DNA of 45,487 nucleotides from a virus (Duplodnaviria > Caudoviricetes), in the IMG/VR virus record IMGVR_UViG_3300027815_000001, positions 1 to 45,487 of that record; one strand, 5' to 3'. The number at the start of each line of letters is the position of its first letter. Position 1 is the stretch's first letter. The notes beneath the pieces are model-generated. The model saw only the letters and a program-made list of their open reading frames with translations. It did not search any database and had not been told where the DNA came from. Shown here piece after piece: positions 2,698 to 25,653 of the stretch. The translations under genes were made by a program, and so were the position numbers.

Positions 2698-3348
2698 ATG
2701 GTAGACGAAGAAAAGGCACTGGATGGAGTCTTGCCGCAAACTCTGACCTACCGTTACTATGTAAAGGCAAGGAATGGGAAGAAGCGAGACTTCATCTATG
2801 ATTTCGCAAAGGCACGGAAGTGCCCGCACCCGAACTTGGTGGCTACGGCAATGGGCGGCAACACGTATCGGTGTACGGAGTGCAACTACTTCTACACCAT
2901 CGTGACCGCCTATGCCGAGCCGATGCACTTGGCTACAGTCAAGGCTGCCTACCAACTCTTGCACTTCAGCAAAGAGTTTGGGGTAGAAGCCTTGCAGGAA
3001 GTCCTACGGCAACCTCATGGACAGTCGGACGGTACTCCCCAGAAAGGTGTTCTGCCAGAGGGGATGAACTTTGCTGACGTTCTCGCTGCGTTGGAATCGG
3101 TCAATGTCAATACGCCAGACCGAGGCGCAGCAGAACTAAGAACGTTGGTGGAGTCCACTTGGCCGTCCGAGGTGGAAATGAAACGCCGAATAGAAGCGTT
3201 GCGTGGAAGTGATGCTCCCGGGAAACGGGAGTACGCTGACAAGCTAGAAGGCATGTTGGAGGCTAGAAATGCCCTTACAGGAAGTCATGGGGAAGTGCCC
3301 TCTCTGCCAGAAGCAGCAGAGCCGAATCTACCGCAAGGGGATTCGTGA
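2698..3348 (+). CDS. Hypothetical zinc-ribbon protein
   Basis: AAGGAG RBS; CPH...YRCTEC motif. Confidence 0.65.
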   Translation: MVDEEKALDGVLPQTLTYRYYVKARNGKKRDFIYDFAKARKCPHPNLVATAMGGNTYRCTECNYFYTIVTAYAEPMHLATVKAAYQLLHFSKEFGVEALQEVLRQPHGQSDGTPQKGVLPEGMNFADVLAALESVNVNTPDRGAAELRTLVESTWPSEVEMKRRIEALRGSDAPGKREYADKLEGMLEARNALTGSHGEVPSLPEAAEPNLPQGDS

Positions 3349-4222
3349 AGACCCCGAACGGCTAGTCTACGAATGCGGATTCTGTGGACTGGTCTACCTG
3401 GACAACAGAATAGCTGACCTGAAGGAATACTATCGTTCCGTCTATCGCAAGACGCACGATAGCATCCCAGGTCAGCAACTAACAGCGGAGCAACGGTTTC
3501 ACATTCAGTACGACCTGGCGCGGCCTTCGGTGAGAAAGTTCACCAGTGAAGTGCCGCCTGGTTCGTCTGTGTTGGAAATCGGCTGCTCCGCTGGCGGTTT
3601 TCTGGGGCATTTGGTGCAGAAGGGCTACGATTGTTACGGCAGCGAATGGAATCCAGAAGATGCAGCCTTTGTGCGTGATGTTGGCGAGATTCCTTGCGAA
3701 GAAGGAGACCTCGGCGACATCTACCCTGGCAAGAAGTTCACGGCCATTGTCGCCATAGCGACCATTGAGCACATCGCTGACCCTATGGCCTTCCTGCGTT
3801 CTTGCAGAGAGAAGTTGATAGGCGGCGGTTGGCTTTACCTAGAGACACCCAATCTACAGGACGCCTTGCTGTCCATGTACGAGTGCAAGGCGTATGCCGA
3901 CTTCTGGTTCAGGGAACCGCACATCACCTACTGGAAAGCCGAGACGTTGGGGGCAGTGGTAGCTGCCACAGGCTTTGAGGCCCGTGTGTTCTGGTATCCA
4001 CGGTATGGGCTACACAATCATGTCAACTGGCTCCTCAATGGGAAGCCGATGCAGGACGTAAAGCAGGCCCGTGGCAGGCTTTCACCCGTGCCAAAGACAA
4101 ATCCAGGAGCGGGCGCACTGAACCGCATCTGGGATCAGCTTGATGAGGAATACCGAGTCCAGATGGAGACGCTGTCTGTCGCCGATACACTGACCGTAAT
4201 GGCTAGGAGGCGGGAGATTTGA
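3269..4222 (+). CDS. Class I SAM-dependent methyltransferase with N-terminal zinc-binding motif (glycan-locus type)
   Basis: CPLC...CGFCG, VLEIGCSAG SAM motif, IEHIADP and LYLETPN motifs; GGAGG RBS. Confidence 0.85.
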   Translation: MPLQEVMGKCPLCQKQQSRIYRKGIREDPERLVYECGFCGLVYLDNRIADLKEYYRSVYRKTHDSIPGQQLTAEQRFHIQYDLARPSVRKFTSEVPPGSSVLEIGCSAGGFLGHLVQKGYDCYGSEWNPEDAAFVRDVGEIPCEEGDLGDIYPGKKFTAIVAIATIEHIADPMAFLRSCREKLIGGGWLYLETPNLQDALLSMYECKAYADFWFREPHITYWKAETLGAVVAATGFEARVFWYPRYGLHNHVNWLLNGKPMQDVKQARGRLSPVPKTNPGAGALNRIWDQLDEEYRVQMETLSVADTLTVMARRREI

Positions 4223-5028
4223 GCGACGTTCCTTCTCTTCGCCATCTGATCGTAGAGGAAGACCTGAACAAAGAACTGTTCGGCATACGGGCCTTCCCTA
4301 TGCGTGAACAGTACAGGAACCCTACCGACAACTGGGGCATGGACTTCGGCATGGACATGCCTCTGCCGTGGTTGAAGCAAGTCCATAATGCCTATGCCGG
4401 CAAACGATGCTTCATGCTAGGCACAGGCCCTTCTTTGAAGGCGCAATTAGATTTGTTGCCTAAGCTGGCAGGGGAGTTCACCTTCACCTGCAACCGCATG
4501 AAGCTCTGGGGAGAGTTGCCGTTCAAGCCCTTTGTGCATTGCATTACGGAGCCGAACCCAGTCATAGACTTCGGCCAGCGCATCAAGTCGCTTTATGACT
4601 TCCCAGGGGCCATGAACAAGGTGGCCTGTATCTGGTGGCCCGTGGTGGCTAAGGGCTGGTTGTGGATGCCCAAAGCTAGCGACGATATTCAGGTGCGATG
4701 GAACGGGACGTGGGGGTTGGGTGAGCACTTGCCGCCCGTACCTACGGCATGGGCGTCTCCATTGACCATCACGCAATTGGCCCTATGGATGGGGTTCTCC
4801 GAGGTCTACATGCTGGGGGTGGACACAACGCAGCAGGGGCAAGCGTGGGATGTAGACCAGGGGCGGACAGCGAAGCCTCGGAGCATCCGTTCCATCTTGG
4901 AATGCGCTGAACGGATGAACAGGGACATCAAGCGTAGTGGGCGGCAGTTCTGGGATTGCACACCAGGCGGGCGGCTGAATACAGAGGGGGCCATAGCCTA
5001 CAAATCCCTGGGAGAGGTACTTCTATGA
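4219..5028 (+). CDS. Maf/DUF115-like putative glycosyltransferase, paralogue 1
   Basis: GKRCFMLGTGPSL, FTCN, LALWMGFSEVYMLGVD and DCTPGG match the MAF_flag10/DUF115 pattern. Confidence 0.8.
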   Translation: MSDVPSLRHLIVEEDLNKELFGIRAFPMREQYRNPTDNWGMDFGMDMPLPWLKQVHNAYAGKRCFMLGTGPSLKAQLDLLPKLAGEFTFTCNRMKLWGELPFKPFVHCITEPNPVIDFGQRIKSLYDFPGAMNKVACIWWPVVAKGWLWMPKASDDIQVRWNGTWGLGEHLPPVPTAWASPLTITQLALWMGFSEVYMLGVDTTQQGQAWDVDQGRTAKPRSIRSILECAERMNRDIKRSGRQFWDCTPGGRLNTEGAIAYKSLGEVLL

Positions 5029-5150
5029 CAGAAGCGTTTGCCTACGGTTTGGCCTTTGGGTTGACATTCGGCGGGCTTGCGGGGCTGGTTGTAGGGTCAC
5101 TGGCAGAAGACGCCTTTGACTTCATCAAGTTCTGGGATAAGAGACGTTGA
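5025..5150 (+). CDS. Small membrane peptide (41 aa)
   Basis: MTEAFAYGLAFGLTFGGLAGLVVGSLA is one hydrophobic helix; the ORF overlaps both neighbours by 4 nt. Confidence 0.55.
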   Translation: MTEAFAYGLAFGLTFGGLAGLVVGSLAEDAFDFIKFWDKRR

Positions 5151-5869
5151 TGGAACATCCCAATGCTGCCAATCTTGCCGCCCTGCACAACATAGCCAGT
5201 GGGCGCATCTTTATGCTTGGTACAGGGCCTTCGCTCCTCAAACAGCAGGACTTGCTGCCAAAGTTGCGCGACGAGGCCACTTTTGCCTGCAATAGTCTTC
5301 CCCGCTGGAAAGAGTGCCCTTTTGTCCCAACCTATTACGCCGTCACGGATATTTACGGGGCAGCCTTGCTCAAAAAATATATCTGGCCTAGCCTACAATG
5401 CCCAAAGTTCCACATTGGATGGGATACCGAGGAAAGCATACCTGAGTTCCAGTGGGTGCATAAGGCTCACGATAGCATCCAGGTCTTTTCACAGGGCTTT
5501 GTTGGGTTTGGTGAAAGCCTGCCACCTATCCCCACAGGACGCACGTCGCCGCTGACCATGTGCCAGCTTGCTGCGTGGATGGGCTACCGAGAGTTCTACT
5601 TCCTGGGTATAGAGCAAAGCGACCACGGGTATGTGTATAACCCAGAGGTGAGCTTGGGGCATTCAGGGCGTGGTTTCAATTATGGACAACGGTATCTGTT
5701 GGCGGTGCAGCGGTGCTTTGCACGGGCGCGACTGGACATAGAAGCTGCGGGGGCAAAAGTCTATGACTGTACGCCTGGTGGTTGGTTGAACAACACAGGC
5801 CAGGCAAAGCGCGGGGTAGGGCACAAGGCAGTGCTGGAATATAAGCCATTGGAAGAGGTGCTGAAATGA
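5147..5869 (+). CDS. Maf/DUF115-like putative glycosyltransferase, paralogue 2
   Basis: RIFMLGTGPSL, FACN, LAAWMGYREFYFLGIE, DCTPGG. Confidence 0.8.
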   Translation: MMEHPNAANLAALHNIASGRIFMLGTGPSLLKQQDLLPKLRDEATFACNSLPRWKECPFVPTYYAVTDIYGAALLKKYIWPSLQCPKFHIGWDTEESIPEFQWVHKAHDSIQVFSQGFVGFGESLPPIPTGRTSPLTMCQLAAWMGYREFYFLGIEQSDHGYVYNPEVSLGHSGRGFNYGQRYLLAVQRCFARARLDIEAAGAKVYDCTPGGWLNNTGQAKRGVGHKAVLEYKPLEEVLK

Positions 5870-6879
5870 GTTTCTGGAAAGGCCAAAAGGTCACGGTCAC
5901 AGGATGTTCGGGCCTGATGGGAGCGCCGCTCTGCAAGTTTCTTCTTGAAGAAGGGGCGCAACTCACAGGCTACGACATGGCCGGGGATGGAATGCTGGCT
6001 GAGTATGGGCTAGTGGGCCAGTTCCCGCTACAGGTGGAGGACATCCGAAACCGAGAGGCCCTATGGCAAGCGGTGCGGCGACGTGGATTTGTCTTCCATC
6101 TTGCAGCCGTGAGCGGGGTTGAGGCGTCTCGCCAGAATCCCAAGCGGGCCTGGACGGTGAATTGCTCTGGGACTGGCGTCGTGCTGGACGTGTGTAAATC
6201 GGCAGGGACGGATGGGGCTGTGGTGGTAGCATCCAGTAACCACGTCTATGGGTTCCAGGAGAAGATGCCTGTACCTGAGACGGCGCAGTTGAACCAGTTG
6301 GACACGTACTCTGCCACCAAGATCGCCGTGGACTATATGGCCCGCTCCTATGCCCACAACTACCGTCTCCCAACGGTTATCATGCGGAACACCAACTGCT
6401 TTGGGCCGCACGACCCGCACAGGGATCATATTGTAGGGGGAACGCTCTTCGGGCTTGCGCAGGGGCAACGGCCTGTCATTCGCGGGACTGGGAAAACCAG
6501 CAAATCCTATCTCCATGTGGCGGATGTGGTAAGGGCGTACATGGCGGCAGCTGAATGGGAGGCAGGCTCAGGACGGTGTGGGGAGGTCTTCAATGTCTCG
6601 GACAAGCCCATCACCGTGCTGGACTTTGTGACGCTCATGTGCAAAGCCACAGGGCATCTGGACATGACGCCTACCGTGTTGGGGCAGTCCAACGACCAGA
6701 GCAATGAGTGGCTGGACGATTCCAAGATAAGGACGGTGACGCCGTGGAAGCCACGCTACAGCCTAGAATCCGCAATACAGGAGACGTATCAGTGGGTGCT
6801 GGCCTCACTAGAGACGCTTACAAAGGAGAACGCCTCTTTGTCCTCGGCACAGGGCCTTCGCTCAAAGATTGCAACCTAA
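5866..6879 (+). CDS. NAD-dependent nucleotide-sugar epimerase/dehydratase (extended SDR)
   Basis: VTGCSGLMG Rossmann motif, VFHLAA, ASS, YSATK catalytic YxxxK, RNTNCFGP. Confidence 0.9.
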   Translation: MSFWKGQKVTVTGCSGLMGAPLCKFLLEEGAQLTGYDMAGDGMLAEYGLVGQFPLQVEDIRNREALWQAVRRRGFVFHLAAVSGVEASRQNPKRAWTVNCSGTGVVLDVCKSAGTDGAVVVASSNHVYGFQEKMPVPETAQLNQLDTYSATKIAVDYMARSYAHNYRLPTVIMRNTNCFGPHDPHRDHIVGGTLFGLAQGQRPVIRGTGKTSKSYLHVADVVRAYMAAAEWEAGSGRCGEVFNVSDKPITVLDFVTLMCKATGHLDMTPTVLGQSNDQSNEWLDDSKIRTVTPWKPRYSLESAIQETYQWVLASLETLTKENASLSSAQGLRSKIAT

Positions 6880-7418
6880 AGAAGCTAAAGGGCGAATACA
6901 CCTTTGGCGTCAATGGCTTATGCGCATGGAAGAACGCGCCCAAGCTGACCTTCTACGGCCTGAGCGAGCACGGGTCATGGGAGCGATGGGCGACACTAGC
7001 ACGGGATACCTTTAGCGGGGCTACGTTCATTGGGGCGAATCAGGGCCGCGCTCCGGTGAATGGGTGGTACATCGTGGACAGACGGTTCAGTTGGCCGTTG
7101 CATGGTGGATACTTCGGTGGACGGGATGCAGAGTTCCAGTGGGTGGCGATGTCGTACTCAGTGGTTTACGAGCTTTGCTTGCAAGCAGCTTTTTGGCTTG
7201 GTTTCCAGGAGGTCTATTTGTTGGGCTGCGACCATAAAGGCACGGAGCATGTGTACCAGGGCCACAACAAGTACCAGCCCGCACATCTGAGCACCCTTAT
7301 CCCAGGGGTACAGACGTGCCTTGACGTTTACAGCCAAGCAGGGCGCAAATTGCTGGACTGCACCCCAGACTCGGGGATCGGTATCATACCGCATAAACCA
7401 TTGGAGGCAGTGCTATGA
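6792..7418 (+). CDS. Maf/DUF115-like putative glycosyltransferase, paralogue 3
   Basis: GERLFVLGTGPSL, FGVN, AFWLGFQEVYLLGCD, DCTP. GTG 6792 has an AGGAG RBS, a better start than 6708. Confidence 0.8.
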   Translation: MGAGLTRDAYKGERLFVLGTGPSLKDCNLKKLKGEYTFGVNGLCAWKNAPKLTFYGLSEHGSWERWATLARDTFSGATFIGANQGRAPVNGWYIVDRRFSWPLHGGYFGGRDAEFQWVAMSYSVVYELCLQAAFWLGFQEVYLLGCDHKGTEHVYQGHNKYQPAHLSTLIPGVQTCLDVYSQAGRKLLDCTPDSGIGIIPHKPLEAVL

Positions 7419-8143
7419 ACACCATCGCAATCATACCAGCTAGGGGTGGAAGCAAAGGCATTCCGCACAAGAACATCGTGCCCTGCGCTGGTAAGCCATT
7501 GCTGTCATGGACGATAGAAGCGGCGTTAGCAGCGCACAGCGTGAGTCAGGTGATCGTGTCTAGCGACGACAAGGATATTCTGGATTGCGCCGTGCGTTAC
7601 GGGGCGCTGGCGTTCTTGCGCTCAGACGTGTTGGCGAAGGACGAAACGCCAACAGAGCCAGTGATGCAGGAGGTACTGCAAAGTCTAACGGAAGAACCTG
7701 GCACAGTCGTGCTCTTGCAGCCAACATCTCCTGTGCGTACAGGGCAGCAGATTGACGAGGCCGTGGCGGTGTTAGAGCGTGGTTATGCCTCTGTGTTGTC
7801 CGTAGTTCCAAGCCATGCCTTCCTTTGGAGGTGGCAACCTGGGAGTGCTGTAGCTGAGTACGACTACGCGCATCGGCCCCGGCGTCAAGAGTTCTCCCAG
7901 TTCCAAGAGAACGGGAGCATCTATGTGACCACGTATGCGCAATGGAAGCGTACAAGAAACAGAATTGGTGGGCGTATCGGGCTTTACATCATGCCTGAAG
8001 AATCAGCGCTCCAAATTGACACCCCACTAGACCTCTACTTGGTAGAGAAGATTTTGGAGCGGCAACATGGTCATGCTGGGGCAACGACTGGTAGCGCAGG
8101 ATCAGCCTCCGTATCTGTGCGCGGAGATTGGTATCAATCATGA
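7415..8143 (+). CDS. neuA: CMP-nonulosonic acid (acylneuraminate) cytidylyltransferase
   Basis: IIPARGGSKGIPHKNI, LLQPTSP, ENGSIY and IDTPLD are NeuA/PseF family motifs. Confidence 0.92.
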   Translation: MNTIAIIPARGGSKGIPHKNIVPCAGKPLLSWTIEAALAAHSVSQVIVSSDDKDILDCAVRYGALAFLRSDVLAKDETPTEPVMQEVLQSLTEEPGTVVLLQPTSPVRTGQQIDEAVAVLERGYASVLSVVPSHAFLWRWQPGSAVAEYDYAHRPRRQEFSQFQENGSIYVTTYAQWKRTRNRIGGRIGLYIMPEESALQIDTPLDLYLVEKILERQHGHAGATTGSAGSASVSVRGDWYQS

Positions 8144-8957
8144 CGGGAGCCTTGAACGTGCGCTTTGGCTCATAGACCAGGCGTCGCTTGCAGGCGCACA
8201 TGCCGTCAAGTTTCAGAAGCGCACCCCTGAACTGGCTGTCCCGCGTTCCGAGTGGGATAAGCCTAAAGAGACACCCTGGGGCGAGATTATGCCCTACATT
8301 GAGTACAAACGGCGCATGGAGTTCGGACGGGCAGAGTATGACGCCATTGCCCAACGGTGCAAGGACGATGGGATTGATTGGTTCGCCTCCCCCTGGGACG
8401 AACCATCTGTGGAGTTCCTGGAACAGTACGAGCCAATCGCTTACAAGATAGGTTCCCCCTCTTTGACGGACAAACCGCTCATAGAGCGCATCATCAAGAC
8501 GGGTAGGCCCATCATCCTCTCCACGGGCATGTCCACCATCTATGAGATAGGTCAGGCCGTTTGGTGGCTGCACGACCAGCAACGGCGACTGATTCTGCTT
8601 CACTGCACGTCCATCTATCCTTGCCCGCCGGACAAGATGAACCTGTCTATGCTCAGAACGCTAAGAGAAGCCTTCCCGCACGTCGTTATCGGATACTCTG
8701 GGCATGAACGTGGCACTGACCATGTGGCGGCGGAAGTGGCATTGGGGGCCTGTTTCCTGGAACGCCACTTCACCAAAGACAGGTTCGCTAAAGGCTCAGA
8801 CCATGCAGCAAGTCTAGAGCCGTGGCAGTTCTGCGACCTTGCAGTGAAGGCTAACAGGACGTGGCTGGCGCTTGGCAATGGCGAGAAGCAGGTCTATGCT
8901 GAAGAACAAGCGAATGCTGCCAAGCTCAGGCGGTCACTGTTTCAGGAGGTGCATTGA
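8067..8957 (+). CDS. neuB: Nonulosonic acid synthase (NeuB family), without C-terminal SAF domain
   Basis: AEIGINHDG, KFQKR, KIGS, STGMS, LHCTSIYP, GYSGHE, ERHFT, GSDHAASLEP. Confidence 0.93.
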   Translation: MVMLGQRLVAQDQPPYLCAEIGINHDGSLERALWLIDQASLAGAHAVKFQKRTPELAVPRSEWDKPKETPWGEIMPYIEYKRRMEFGRAEYDAIAQRCKDDGIDWFASPWDEPSVEFLEQYEPIAYKIGSPSLTDKPLIERIIKTGRPIILSTGMSTIYEIGQAVWWLHDQQRRLILLHCTSIYPCPPDKMNLSMLRTLREAFPHVVIGYSGHERGTDHVAAEVALGACFLERHFTKDRFAKGSDHAASLEPWQFCDLAVKANRTWLALGNGEKQVYAEEQANAAKLRRSLFQEVH

Positions 8958-9505
8958 TGTCTCTCTCTAAGTTCACCTACGTTGAGTACGAGCCTGCGCC
9001 TGACCGCTTTGGCCGTACCCACACACATTTGTTACAGATTGGCGATGGTGTCAATAGCATCTATGACACGAACATAGAAAGCGTGGCGGAGGAACTTGCG
9101 GAGACCGTGGCCCGTTGCACAGAGGATAGGCATGAGGGGCATGGCTTCACACACTCAGACGCCGAGGTGGAAGAAGCCTATCGTACTGCCGTCATGCAAC
9201 TGCTGACAAGGGACTACGACAAGGAGCAAGAGGAGATTGAGCGTGGCATACGGCGTCAGAAGAAATGGGGTGGGCCAGTGCCAGAGATGGTGCTTTTCCC
9301 CGATGCTGCCGACCCCAAGAAGTGGAATATCCTTGTGACAGACAAAGAGGGCAATGCCTTTGTCTATCCTGTGCGGAAGGAAGCGCAAGCCCTTTTGCAT
9401 GAGGCATTACCAAGTCCTGACCAGGTGAGGGGTACGCACCCCACCAAGTCTGGGCTTGGATGGAAGGTTGACAGGCGGTTCAAGCCCCGTTATGATGGGC
9501 GGTGA
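8954..9505 (+). CDS. Hypothetical protein
   Basis: AGGAGG RBS, coupled to the neuB stop codon. Confidence 0.7.
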   Translation: MMSLSKFTYVEYEPAPDRFGRTHTHLLQIGDGVNSIYDTNIESVAEELAETVARCTEDRHEGHGFTHSDAEVEEAYRTAVMQLLTRDYDKEQEEIERGIRRQKKWGGPVPEMVLFPDAADPKKWNILVTDKEGNAFVYPVRKEAQALLHEALPSPDQVRGTHPTKSGLGWKVDRRFKPRYDGR

Positions 9506-9526
9506 CTGAACCAATCAGTTTAGGCT

Positions 9527-9556
9527 AAAAGGACGTGCATCTCCGCACGTCCTTTT
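9527..9556. terminator. Intrinsic terminator-like hairpin, possibly bidirectional
   Basis: AAAAGGACGTGC-ATCTCC-GCACGTCCTTTT: perfect 12-bp stem including A and T tails, at the end of the capsid/glycosylation unit. Confidence 0.7.
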
Positions 9557-9594
9557 GCTTTAGCTCCCACTGATGATGATGAAAGGGGGCGACG

Positions 9595-9897
9595 ATGCCC
9601 AACATCCTCGGTCTTGCTGCAATCTCTCTCACAGACGATGCAGCTGCTGGTTTCGCATCTGTCCCTACAGGCACAACGCAAGCTATCTTGAAGTGTGAGT
9701 CCAACAGCGTGCGCTTGGGTGATGCTACTTCTGTCCCAACTGCCTCTACAGGCTACCTGTGGAGCGTTGGTGAGACACTTGCTTTCGTTGGCAACGACTA
9801 TGGCGACTTCCTCCGTAATCTCAACATCATCAACGCTACTGCCGGGAGCAACGGCGTAATCAAGGGCATCTTCTTCAATGGTTTTGACCGTGCGTAG
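9595..9897 (+). CDS. Putative small virion structural protein
   Basis: Beta-rich 100-aa protein immediately upstream of the fibre gene. Confidence 0.55.
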   Translation: MPNILGLAAISLTDDAAAGFASVPTGTTQAILKCESNSVRLGDATSVPTASTGYLWSVGETLAFVGNDYGDFLRNLNIINATAGSNGVIKGIFFNGFDRA

Positions 9898-16249: not shown

Positions 16250-17073
16250 CCATCTGGACACCACAGGCGCAGGCCGCACTCAAGCGGTTTGCGGGAAGGG
16301 TACGCCGGCGGCTTCTCTGGATAATCATCGCTTGGGCAATAGGTGCAAGCAACACCTGGTGGTTCCGAGAGGCGGTGTTTGCGTTCCTGTTTGCCCCCGC
16401 TAACGGCGCTTTGTCGCCTTACGGGGGACTCCCCATCTTCACAAGCCCAGGCGGGATGATGGGCGTTACATTTAGTCTGGCGGTAAAGGGCGGCTTGGTC
16501 GCTGCGTTCCCCGTTGCAGTAGTTAGCGTCTACACGCTGGTGAGGCCGTTGCTGAGTCCACAGCATCGGCGGATTGTCATCCTCTTCCTGCCTGCTATCC
16601 TCGTGTGTTTCCTCGCTGGGGTAGCGTTTGCCTATTTCGTGATGCTGCCCACAGGGATGAAGTTTCTCCTCAATTTCGGAGAGGGCATCGCAGTCCCGCT
16701 CATCAGCATCACGGAATACATGAGCCTGGTCACATCGCTCATTTTCTGGATTGGCGTGACCTTTGAGTTGCCGCTTGTCATGCTCCTTCTCACGAAGCTG
16801 AGGCTCGTACCATACGAGCGCTTCAAGCGAGCTAGCAAGTACGTTCCTTTCGCGGCAGTTGCCCTAGGCGGGTTTATCACGCCCACGGTTGATGAAGTCA
16901 ATCAGACGTTGATAGCAGTACCAATCATCCTCTTGTATGGGTTCGGGCTGTTCCTGTCGTGGCTGGCACGGGCAAAGCCGGTGGGCCACAAGAGCATCTG
17001 GCAGAAAGCTAAGGCGTGGTTCAAGGGCTGGCTAGACCGCTTGGCTTGGCGGTGGTTCTCATTCTGGCAGTGA
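16246..17073 (+). CDS. tatC: Twin-arginine translocase subunit TatC homologue (divergent)
   Basis: Six hydrophobic segments. GVAFAYFVMLP, ISITEY, FWIGVTFELP and ITPTVDEVNQTLIAVPIILLY match TatC. A TM1-like segment (RVRRRLLWIIIAW) lies in frame upstream of the called GTG 16375, so the true start is near 16246. Confidence 0.88.
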   Translation: MTIWTPQAQAALKRFAGRVRRRLLWIIIAWAIGASNTWWFREAVFAFLFAPANGALSPYGGLPIFTSPGGMMGVTFSLAVKGGLVAAFPVAVVSVYTLVRPLLSPQHRRIVILFLPAILVCFLAGVAFAYFVMLPTGMKFLLNFGEGIAVPLISITEYMSLVTSLIFWIGVTFELPLVMLLLTKLRLVPYERFKRASKYVPFAAVALGGFITPTVDEVNQTLIAVPIILLYGFGLFLSWLARAKPVGHKSIWQKAKAWFKGWLDRLAWRWFSFWQ

Positions 17074-20607: not shown

Positions 20608-20802
20608 TCACTCACCCGCTGGCCGGATATCCCCCACGCCTGTGAGGACATGCGTAGTAACGTAATTGCGGTAATGGCGATTATCCTCTGACTCCTTTTT
20701 CAGTTCAACGAGAAACGTATCACCCATGACGGTGGTTTCCACGTCGTCGGCCTCAATGACCTCTGGCGCTCGGTTGTCCTTATAGCTGATTAGGTACTTC
20801 AT
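20608..20802 (-). CDS. Hypothetical protein
   Basis: AAGGAG RBS; first gene downstream of the structured RNA. Confidence 0.6.
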   Translation of the reverse strand: MKYLISYKDNRAPEVIEADDVETTVMGDTFLVELKKESEDNRHYRNYVTTHVLTGVGDIRPAGE

Positions 20803-20884
20803 GGTCTCTCCTTGCTGTTACAAACTATTAGCCCCGTGGCTAAACTTAGCCCGCCGTTGCTGCTTGGCCTGTCACCCAGCGACA

Positions 20885-21336
20885 TGCCGTGCCCGTTCAA
20901 GTGCAGCATCCCCTATGTCTCTCACCTCACCCTCTTGCGAGGGACGGCGGGCCTTGCTGACGCCCAGGGCCTGGCTTTGCCTGTAGTGCAGTAGGCGAAC
21001 TACCCACACTTGATCATCCGGCTAGGCTTCACCCTGGGCGTCAGCAATGACTCCGTGCCGCCTATCCCGCCTGCCTTGCGGCTGTCTACCCTTACGGGCG
21101 GCGGGAAAACTCACATGGGCTAACGTGCCCTCGTCGCTCGTCTTGTCGGCGGCTCCTATGGTACGGTGCTGGCCCTTGTGCATCCAACGGTCTGCGCGCT
21201 GAGTTCACCCCTAACAAGTCCAGGGTAACGCTTCTTGACCCTTTCGGGCCGTCCCAAGCCATTGGTATCTGTCCAGCCACCGCCGCTTGCGCTGCCGCTC
21301 CCCCAGTGGAAGACGCTGGCAGCATTGAACGGTACG
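20885..21336 (-). ncRNA. Large structured non-coding RNA, unclassified (about 450 nt; may extend to about 20828)
   Basis: Long-range closing stems, a perfect 16-bp inverted repeat (20954-20969 / 21032-21047) and four GNRA-capped hairpins on the minus strand. No convincing CDS. Confidence 0.7.
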
Positions 21337-21344
21337 TTACGCCT

Positions 21345-21539
21345 TCACCTTCTTGGGCTTGTTCCATGTAATCGTTCCGCTAAAGAGGGTGTTCCATCGG
21401 TAGCACTAGGAACACTAATCTCTTCCGCTAAGTCCAGCAACCTGTGAATCACATCCCCGTAGGTCTCACGGGGATGCACCTTCAATGGCTCCAACCGTGC
21501 AAAGTCGGCCTCTTCAATAGCGATTGTCTTTAGTGCCAT
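21345..21539 (-). CDS. Small ribbon-helix-helix / antitoxin-like DNA-binding protein
   Basis: KTIAIEEADFARLEPLKVHPRETYGDVIHRLLD fits a beta-helix-helix pattern. Confidence 0.65.
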   Translation of the reverse strand: MALKTIAIEEADFARLEPLKVHPRETYGDVIHRLLDLAEEISVPSATDGTPSLAERLHGTSPRR

Positions 21540-21569: not shown

Positions 21570-21597
21570 ATTATAGCGGGTTGCGATGCGTTGTCAA
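21570..21597 (-). promoter_or_regulatory. Sigma70-type promoter TTGACA-16-TATAAT
   Basis: Perfect consensus hexamers upstream of the RHH gene and the ncRNA. Confidence 0.8.
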
Positions 21598-24219: not shown

Positions 24220-24638
24220 GGCTTTGCTCCTTCCGCTTCTAGTGCCTGTTTGAGCACATCACACCATGCTTGCTCCACTGTCAAGTTAGCGGCGTCTACC
24301 CGATAGTGTCCTACCCAGGTCGCATGGCGTACTTCCAGTACAAAGAAACTATTCACCCAAGTGAAGATGAAGTGCGGCTTCCACCGTTGCCGTGCCGCTT
24401 CCAACACGTCGCCGAGGTTCGGAGTAGGGAGCCAGCCGCGACCAGCACAGTTTGCGCATACCCCAAACCCAGAATCGTAAGGAATTGGATTGTCAACATG
24501 TCTAATTTCTCCTCCCGGGTAGGAGAATCCCCTTACGCACGGCGTTCGCAGCCTATCTACACCGTCAGGCCCAAGCAGCACCAACGCAGGTGTGCCAGCG
24601 GAGTTTTTCAACAAGAGTAGGTCTAGGATAGTTGTCAT
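24216..24638 (-). CDS. Hypothetical protein with CxxCxGxG motif
   Basis: CANCAGRGWLP; GGAGG RBS before ATG 24638. Confidence 0.6.
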   Translation of the reverse strand: MTTILDLLLLKNSAGTPALVLLGPDGVDRLRTPCVRGFSYPGGEIRHVDNPIPYDSGFGVCANCAGRGWLPTPNLGDVLEAARQRWKPHFIFTWVNSFFVLEVRHATWVGHYRVDAANLTVEQAWCDVLKQALEAEGAKP

Positions 24639-24886
24639 GGCCGGGGCCTCCACTTCTGGTAGGCCATGCTCAGGTTCGCCCAAACTATTGCGGATGTCCC
24701 AAAGGCAAACCCGATGTGCTCCGCCTGGGAACCAGTGATGCGCCCGCCGTCCAGGATTGCTTGCAACTCAGGCTCTGGTAGCACTGAGTGGTACGCCATG
24801 TCCGTGAGAGACCAGCCGCGCTCCTCCATCTCCTCACGGATGAAGTCACCCGGCGGGAATATCTCTGCGGGGATACGCTCTTTCAT
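24635..24886 (-). CDS. HigA-like HTH (XRE family) protein
   Basis: PAEIFPPGDFIREEMEERGWS...FGTSAIVWANL...Y. Confidence 0.8.
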   Translation of the reverse strand: MKERIPAEIFPPGDFIREEMEERGWSLTDMAYHSVLPEPELQAILDGGRITGSQAEHIGFAFGTSAIVWANLSMAYQKWRPRP

Positions 24887-25653
24887 GGCCTCTCCTTCAT
24901 CGTCCAAATGTCGTCAGGGATGCGCCCCTGTAGGCCAGGGACACGCCCTGAGTCCTGTTTTACCCATACAGGGACGCCCGCTGCCCTGCACTGCCCCACA
25001 GCGCCTTCCAGGGCAGCAATATCAAGCTCCCGCCGCACACCTTTGGGGCCGCTTTCACCCCCAAAGATCGCCCAGTTCAAGGTCAGGCCCTTGCAGACGC
25101 AAGGCTTCTGCCCGCATCCGCACTTGTAGAGCCACGGCTTGATGTCCAGCGGCCCCAGCAACGGCTCAAAGCTGGCAAACGTGGTGACGCTTGGGTAGAG
25201 AGCTTTGATCTTTGCCAGCGTCCCTAGCCGCCACACGTAGTCCTGGGATTCCACGCTCACCCCTGCCCAAATGTTTGCGCGCCAGGCATTCCCCTTTGCC
25301 CAGGCCAGCATGTTCGCTGGCCGCTTGGTGAGCACCTGGAACGTGAGGTTTGGGCATTGGCGCATGATGGCCCACGCACCATAGCGCCAACGATCAGCGG
25401 CAGGATGGAAGAAGTCCGACCAGGAACAGGTGAACACAAAGGCTTGTTCGCCCTTGCCCGCTGCCTCACGCTGCCATTTGAGGGGCGCTTTGAACGTGGC
25501 ATCCGAGGATCGGTGGATGTCCGCCGGGTCATTGTCGTACCGCGCCATGTCCCGAAACATGTAGCAGTTGTCGCAGCCGGGGCTGACCTTCGCGCAGCCG
25601 ATAAAAGGATTCCACGTCTTGTCAGTCCAGGAAATCGCTGTAGTTTCACCCAT
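24883..25653 (-). CDS. DUF5131 family (phage Gp37/Gp68) protein
   Basis: ISWTDKTWNPFIGCAKVSPGCDNCY, WSDFFH, FQVLTKRP, SFEPLLG, GGESG, VKQ. Confidence 0.9.
   Translation of the reverse strand: MGETTAISWTDKTWNPFIGCAKVSPGCDNCYMFRDMARYDNDPADIHRSSDATFKAPLKWQREAAGKGEQAFVFTCSWSDFFHPAADRWRYGAWAIMRQCPNLTFQVLTKRPANMLAWAKGNAWRANIWAGVSVESQDYVWRLGTLAKIKALYPSVTTFASFEPLLGPLDIKPWLYKCGCGQKPCVCKGLTLNWAIFGGESGPKGVRRELDIAALEGAVGQCRAAGVPVWVKQDSGRVPGLQGRIPDDIWTMKERP

Follow-up and report, generated by a model that had tools for sequence, protein, structure and literature searches.

The RNA of RNase P is an ancient and near-universal ribozyme that trims tRNA, and the CAA of its J5/15 joint is among the landmarks tied to metal binding, the cleavage site or the CCA end. 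Among the large phage RNAs, GOLLD sits near tRNA islands. The same setting is given for ROOL in the accessible part of its report (10.1101/2024.12.08.627333). The available portions of three RNase P studies tie CR-I and CR-V, the bulged U and the GGU to metal binding, the cleavage site and the CCA end of the substrate, the GGU in the P15 loop pairing with the tRNA CCA end (PMC4919922, PMC11143913, PMC8172020). According to the accessible text of one of them, CPR bacteria naturally carry reduced RNase P RNAs without P12/P13/P14/P18 or most of P15, whose genes score below model thresholds, yet were found by cmsearch with lowered thresholds (PMC8172020). Circularly permuted group II introns occur naturally in bacteria, as stated in the available part of PMC8637638. 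A literature search that largely covered sources outside the subscription journals, some of them in part, found no phage-encoded or naturally permuted RNase P RNA.

Here we describe a locus of about 500 nt on the minus strand of a phage genome (20828..21340; features of the RNA are given on the minus strand, 5' to 3'). It very probably encodes a real, large, structured and unclassified RNA, and with a probability of roughly 50% we read this RNA as a circularly permuted, heavily remodelled derivative of RNase P RNA. The window, the whole stretch of 45,487 nucleotides that was analysed, is bounded by direct terminal repeats and represents a complete virus record of 45.5 kb; it is contained in four groundwater metagenome runs, which may be its source. 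Its genes include terminase, capsid-like, replication, RusA, methylase and sugar-modifying functions, no tRNA gene was found in it, and it has other gaps of 132-272 nt. We infer a Chloroflexota host: a search with the phage TatC gave 21 genome loci, 20 of which carry Chloroflexota titles, and of five genomes tested two small ones matched best, at 42% and 39%.

Several other features of the genome were recorded. The TatC (Tat translocase) gene at 16375-17073 on the plus strand matches Pfam at E 3e-38, and its nearest relatives are Chloroflexota TatC proteins at 31-43%. A plus-strand sugar-modifying cluster 3' of the capsid-like gene (3269-8957) comprises a methyltransferase, three MptE-like genes, an epimerase, a cytidylyltransferase and NeuB, and possibly serves virion or host-surface glycosylation. 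Parts of the late region fold unusually well: the segment 3300-3812 (plus strand), inside a methyltransferase gene, has a folding z of -9.0, and 200-nt windows in late coding or near-coding stretches (201-400, 2700-3280 and 9300-9640 among them) reach z -4.6 to -10.7. An HTH antitoxin-like gene lies at 24635-24907 on the minus strand (phrog_1381, E 6e-8). Terminase relatives at 33-42% identity are common in viral contigs (L043-L122), and one at 75% (L044/L045) has about 11 kb of structural genes in common with the phage.

A sigma70-type promoter is predicted upstream of the RNA at 21570..21597 (minus strand), where the sequence TTGACA-16-TATAAT agrees with the consensus at 12 of 12 positions, as an earlier note on this DNA had held. 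Transcription from it would run through a small gene (21345..21539, minus strand, 64 aa) into the RNA. The product of this gene is a ribbon-helix-helix (RHH) or VapB-antitoxin-like protein and a predicted autoregulator; its match to DUF7557 is weak (E 2.7e-5, 23.9 bits, below the cut-off of 25). It agrees at 84% over 44 aa with a relative, P0002, which was placed in the Atlas VapB cluster (0.91). The last six residues and the stop of P0002 are encoded at 21358-21338, in a different frame and directly 5' of the RNA, so the contig encoding P0002 probably carries a diverged copy of the RNA. A 9-nt direct repeat within the tail region 21338-21432 (minus strand), together with the frame difference from the P0002 tail, suggests a recent duplication or frameshift beside the 5' edge of the RNA. 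Downstream, a gene for a 64-aa viral hypothetical protein (20608..20802, minus strand; codon score 0.28; Atlas neighbours viral, 0.87) starts a run of small minus-strand genes.

The gap of about 500 nt between these two genes had been described as free of any credible gene, and it proved to be so. The frame at issue, ORF 21092-21367 (91 codons), matched nothing in Pfam or PHROG, and none of six candidate protein relatives was confirmed at E<=1. Its codon score of -0.10 is non-coding, compared with 0.05-0.28 in nine scored neighbour genes, a set that excludes the RHH gene, itself at -0.008.

The minus strand carries four GNRA hairpins, with loops at 21245, 21095, 21079 and 20938, compared with a mean of 0.33 in shuffled sequences; four were reached in 1 of 5000 shuffles and in no other 513-nt stretch of the genome. 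A fifth, with an A-G mismatch, lies at 21295-21282 in the 5' leader. Across the genome, no other perfect inverted repeat spaced within 800 nt equals the 16-bp stem 21047-21032/20969-20954, a length that none of 2000 shuffles reached. The UCCCGCC/GGCGGGA junction (21106-21100/21071-21065) has pair probabilities of 0.8-1.0. The four hairpins, the stem and the junction had all been listed in the earlier note and were recovered at these positions. The folding z-score against shuffled sequence, which the note had put forward as a check, was -3.9 for the minus strand versus -1.5 for the plus strand, and -4.5 for the segment 21280-20836. Among 24 control windows, one had a z of -9.0 and two more -3.5 and -3.0, and within the RNA region 200-nt windows reached only -1.8, -1.6 and 0.0 (in a scan of 129 such windows over positions 1-25,800); folding energy alone does not single out this region. 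The hairpin, stem and strand-asymmetry statistics, together with the lack of an Rfam match, support the call of a large structured RNA on this strand.

The minimum free energy (MFE) fold closes the RNA by the helices 21280-21271/20845-20836 and 20953-20944/20857-20848. Two other long-range helices had been proposed, with G-U pairs said to fix the strand. Their complementary strands do exist: CCGUUCAA (21332-21325) and UUGAACGG (20900-20893) form eight Watson-Crick pairs, and CAGCGUCUUC (21318-21309) and GGGGAUGCUG (20913-20904) form ten pairs. Three pairs of the second helix are G-U, and the first helix has none. As both lie outside the MFE fold, cost 4.9 kcal/mol when forced together and have many equally strong competitors, these helices may form but do not stand out.

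The RNA had been called unclassified, and an Rfam covariance scan bears this out, with no match at the gathering score and chance-level hits only (up to E 10), as in scans of its sub-stretches. Searches with the individual models of GOLLD, group I, group II, bacterial and archaeal RNase P, and HEARO returned nothing. The suggested likeness to ROOL and GOLLD was not borne out: neither the GOLLD model (RF02032) nor the ROOL model (RF03087), for which the positive control also gave no match, matched the RNA, and the genome has no tRNA genes. Other candidates were rejected. A group I reading, which had begun from P4- and P7-like words picked by eye, has no RF00028 match, and by eye its required P3 strands do not pair; the partner strands required by an HDV-like reading do not pair either. 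Group II domain 5/6 (RF00029) was not matched, nor was HEARO/omega RNA (RF02033), and no nuclease partner occurs among 49 Pfam-scanned ORFs. A tRNA-like domain and tag frame, as in tmRNA, were not found.

Landmarks resembling those of RNase P RNA, of which the earlier note had none, are present. Once the ends are joined, P3, P4, P5, J5/15, P7, P15, J15/16 and CR-V follow the RNase P order. From 21154, a P2-G-P3-like word is followed by the P3 arm, a 4-nt linker, a 9-nt P4-like strand with AGUC, P5 and AGGGUG (P7); then come a 60-nt insert with GGCAAA, the partners of P7 and P5, CAA, GGCC (P15), an insert, ACAUAGG, GGGU, the P15 partner and the closing helix; and across the joined ends lie ACAGA, the 9-nt P4 partner and a P1-like helix.

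The predicted mature RNA of about 445 nt (20836..21280) would be closed by the 10-bp MFE helix 21280-21271/20845-20836, which, if the RNA is read as permuted, is predicted to stand where P19 would be. It is preceded by a 5' leader (21281..21340), whose strands 21332-21325 and 21318-21309 can pair with 20913-20893 and which may thereby act on the fold. At the 5' end of the mature RNA, the CR-V-like ACAGA (21272-21268) and the P4-like 3' strand (21264-21256) were picked by the descriptor introduced below, with 2-nt and 1-nt insertions needed (21256..21272). A P1-like helix with one mismatch (21255-21249/21166-21160), found in the MFE fold and by the descriptor, closes a putative linker domain with the GAAA hairpin (21160..21255). 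The P3-like arm (21153-21148/21062-21057), with a three-way junction and two GNRA hairpins, spans 21057..21154, its pair probabilities being 0.8-1.0. It is followed at 21041..21057 by a degenerate J3/4-like linker (CACG), the P4-like 5' strand with AGUC (21053-21045) and a P5-like 5' strand (21044-21041), in the 4+9+4 nt spacing of 30 rnpB genes. The 16-bp stem would represent P5, an extension and P7 (AGGGUG at 21035) around a shrunken, S-domain-like insert of 60 nt with GGCAAA at 20981 (20954..21047). The P5 3' strand, the J5/15-like CAA (20956-20954) and the P15-like 5' strand GGCC (20953-20950) occupy 20944..20960, and a P15-P16-like domain with a GCAA hairpin insert, the J15/16-like ACAUAGG (20918) and GGGU (20877-20874) covers 20848..20953. 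Two partners compete for P15, one of 4 bp at 20869-20866 and one of 10 bp at 20857-20848. The spacings P3-J3/4-P4-P5 and P5-CAA-P15 need no indel.

This arrangement was scored with a circular descriptor built from 30 Chloroflexota rnpB genes; the descriptor, its allowed indels and the windows were chosen after the candidate had been seen, other families having been tried by eye first, and the scores are to be read accordingly. The core score of the candidate was 59.5, versus 43.9±3.9 in 342 shuffles (maximum 57.5), and topped 174 genome windows. With optional motifs it reached 76.8 versus a maximum of 67.2 in 215 shuffles, and controls run on this version gave at most 59.4 in 37 LSU rRNA windows, at most 54.4 in 10 tmRNAs and 49.0 on the reverse strand. 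The final descriptor yielded 83.7 versus 48.7±4.1 in 250 shuffles; two sets of block permutations never attained this value (0/145 and 0/127, maximum 79.2), and real rnpB genes score 150-172. Seven decoy alphabets, in which the letters were relabelled, gave z from -0.5 to 1.9 versus 7.4 for the true alphabet, and eight coding control windows scored 64.3 or less. The candidate uses both insertions that the descriptor allows.

The energetic cost depends on the variant. A fold without P2, with both P4 strands free and the 10-bp P15, lies 11.4 kcal/mol above the MFE, inside the range of 3.4-13.2 kcal/mol found in 10 real rnpB genes, and 28.3 kcal/mol, above that range, is needed once P2 is included and the 4-bp P15 is set beside GGU. 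The P2 assignment shifted between descriptor runs and comprises at most 4-5 bp, compared with 7 bp in RNase P.

Every RNase P test that was not tuned to the candidate is negative. The covariance models RF00010 and RF00373 and nhmmer with an rnpB HMM gave no match to the RNA, and a sequence-only alignment to an rnpB profile stayed at the null level in 6 of 6 parameter sets. A P15-P18 covariance model gave 15 hits, none on the expected segment, and a reciprocal model gave 37 weak hits, 5 of them inside rnpB and none of these in register. The absence of tRNA genes from the phage also weighs against the RNase P reading.

The individual elements are unevenly kept. J5/15 CAA, between P5 and P15, scores 16.7, equal to real rnpB genes. 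CR-V retains ACAGA and GCUU with 2+1 inserted bases and scores 19.1, versus 27-30 in real genes. CR-I keeps AGUC, but the four bases of J3/4 and the first base of P4, invariant in 30 of 30 rnpB genes, read CACG and G; one of the five is unchanged, and the element scores 0.8 versus 15-18 in real rnpB. The P4-like 9-bp helix (21053-21045/21264-21256) has a predicted energy of -9.0 kcal/mol, and its U faces an extra G and is not bulged; the exact partner of the P4-like 5' strand, with the U bulged, lies elsewhere, at 21327-21321 of the leader. GGGU precedes the 4-bp P15 partner, with which the 10-bp partner competes. CR-II and CR-III of the specificity domain and the conserved J18/2 linker were not picked by the descriptor. 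The 5' and 3' ends, joined in P1 in RNase P RNA, are here held at 21280-21271/20845-20836. The RNA thus fails membership of the RNase P family, and the claim is therefore one of descent and likeness, at about even odds.

These same negative tests favour another, rather unlikely, explanation, in which the RNase P landmarks are coincidental and the RNA is an orphan from a new family of large ornate RNAs. It would then serve as a scaffold made of RNA only or as a sponge for proteins, roles that have been proposed for ROOL, GOLLD and OLE. The GNRA and stem statistics, the several long crossing helices and the strong promoter would all suit such an RNA. The descriptor signal, in contrast, depends on the order of the elements and is flat in the decoys, and the RNA has neither a ROOL or GOLLD match nor a tRNA array beside it.

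No homologue of the RNA was found in viral, metagenome or genome scans. The first viral pattern scan gave 38 loci, none confirmed by nhmmer, the second none, and the third 119 loci (all examined by nhmmer and 100 of them by model R1), none a true relative; the top hits of this third scan proved to be hammerheads or other short hairpin pairs. A viral scan with the RHH gene gave two spurious tail matches and one with the downstream gene none. Neither 80 terminase loci and 27 virus records, nor 80 recombinase-like loci, nor 67 virus records searched with model R1 (overlapping the 27) held a homologue, and 100 loci searched with model R3 gave one hit at E 0.59 that was no true relative. A metagenome scan with the RHH alignment returned the identical copy only. 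Among 401 Chloroflexota genomes there were 27 short hits, none of which extended in nhmmer, and those inspected sat in genes. A set of 401 genomes from the class of G388 gave one hit, within a gene, a set of 401 from the class of G029 queried with the RHH gene one weak hit at nhmmer level only, and 151 genomes searched with model R3 four hits, all over long open frames. Altogether about 950 genome searches were made with the RNA or its model, in overlapping samples. Named phages and plasmids held no relative. No RNA data set was among the runs listed as containing the stretch. Four small-share runs yielded, as contigs, only short pieces at depth 2-6, two of which reach into the RNA (21252-21500 and 20783-20913, agreeing at 95-99%); one, at depth 2, has an extra base at 20897, in the 8-bp helix 21332-21325/20900-20893, possibly an error.

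The scans also turned up structures of separate interest. In a 345-kb phage (L283), a stretch of some 300 nt rich in hairpins (minus strand, about 700-1010) lies between tRNA-like genes and a cspA gene; a sub-threshold cspA match overlaps its end only, and it is unrelated to the RNA described here. Type II hammerhead-like ribozymes occur in L320/L349/L356, L367 and L266; one exceeds the Rfam cut-off, and three fall slightly short of it or are weaker. The LSU rRNA match of L416 (G091) extends over 3.7 kb versus the usual 3.0 kb or so, which suggests an intron or insertion.

The failure of every search to find a homologue would fit the view that there is no functional RNA at all, the locus being a decayed gene or a mobile-element relic whose GC-rich sequence folds by chance. 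Coding windows of the genome that fold equally well or better, the ORF 21092-21367 spanning the 5' half, and the frameshifted RHH tail, by which the locus may be decaying, point the same way. We consider this quite improbable in view of the GNRA cluster (1/5000) and the stem (0/2000), the strand asymmetry, and a reading frame with a non-coding codon score and no protein relative. Least likely of all is a cis-acting leader, an antitermination or attenuation switch for the downstream small genes in which exclusive pairings decide read-through at 20843-20828: the RNA does lie between the promoter with its RHH gene and the next start at 20802, and it has two global folds within 5 kcal/mol and a weak terminator-like hairpin (20828..20843, minus strand) overlapping the 3' strand of the closing helix, but such sites occur at chance level (2 found, 2.4 expected), about 500 nt with four GNRA loops exceed what leaders of this kind usually need, and no riboswitch matched.

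If the RNA does derive from RNase P RNA by permutation, its working can be sketched. Transcription from the promoter at 21597-21570 would pass the RHH gene and then yield it as part of a precursor, whose unit of about 445 nt has its new ends held by the 10-bp helix at the place of P19, the ancestral ends (P1) being joined by the linker domain. Pairing between the two linkers of the central loop would form a P4-like pseudoknot of 9 bp that stacks on P1 and P5. The landmarks kept would be AGUC of P4, ACAGA/GCUU of CR-V, the J5/15 CAA and the GGU before the P15 strand, and the T-loop reader (CR-II/III) would be lost. With the landmarks for the substrate end retained and the T-loop reader gone, a binder or cutter independent of the tRNA elbow is likelier than a normal pre-tRNA maturase, all the more in a phage without tRNAs to mature; the RNA would hold on to the ends of tRNA-like hairpins and possibly cut them. 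More speculatively, 5' leader strands complementary to the P4- and P16-like segments could hold the precursor in another fold. That the RNA is catalytically active is doubtful, and we give a similarly low chance to the full proposal of a natural permuted RNase P-type ribozyme without the T-loop reader, cutting host tRNAs or hairpin transcripts of the phage, with the leader blocking P4 until it is removed.

Were the derivation from RNase P true, a small phage would have repurposed the catalytic domain of RNase P with new ends and without the tRNA-elbow reader, in a form invisible to standard models, and the RNA would allow one to test directly what the ribozyme can do without. Should it fail, the stretch would still likely be a new large phage RNA.

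Compared with the described systems, the RNA resembles ROOL (RF03087) and GOLLD (RF02032) in size class, in its location in a phage, in its many helices and in its possible pseudoknots; it differs in having neither a model match nor a tRNA island. Permuted group II introns, as described in the available text of PMC8637638, are an earlier case of a large bacterial ribozyme whose order is permuted, but their domain 5/6 (RF00029) is not matched in the phage RNA. The CPR RNase P RNAs, in the accessible part of PMC8172020, likewise show loss of helices and sub-threshold model scores; they are cellular and still found by cmsearch, and permutation is not described in that part of the source. From type A RNase P RNA (rnpB, RF00010) the phage RNA differs by a rotation that puts its new ends at a P19-like helix, the changed CR-I linker, a weak or absent P2, large GNRA-rich inserts in P1 and P3, and the missing CR-II, CR-III, P8/P9, P13/P14, P18 and J18/2. 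It shares with type A the predicted arrangement of P3, P4, P5, P7 and P15 in native spacing, the words AGUC in P4, CAA in J5/15, GGCC in P15 and AGGGUG in P7, and further GGCAAA, the ACAUAGG linker, and ACAGA and GCUU around the P4 3' strand.
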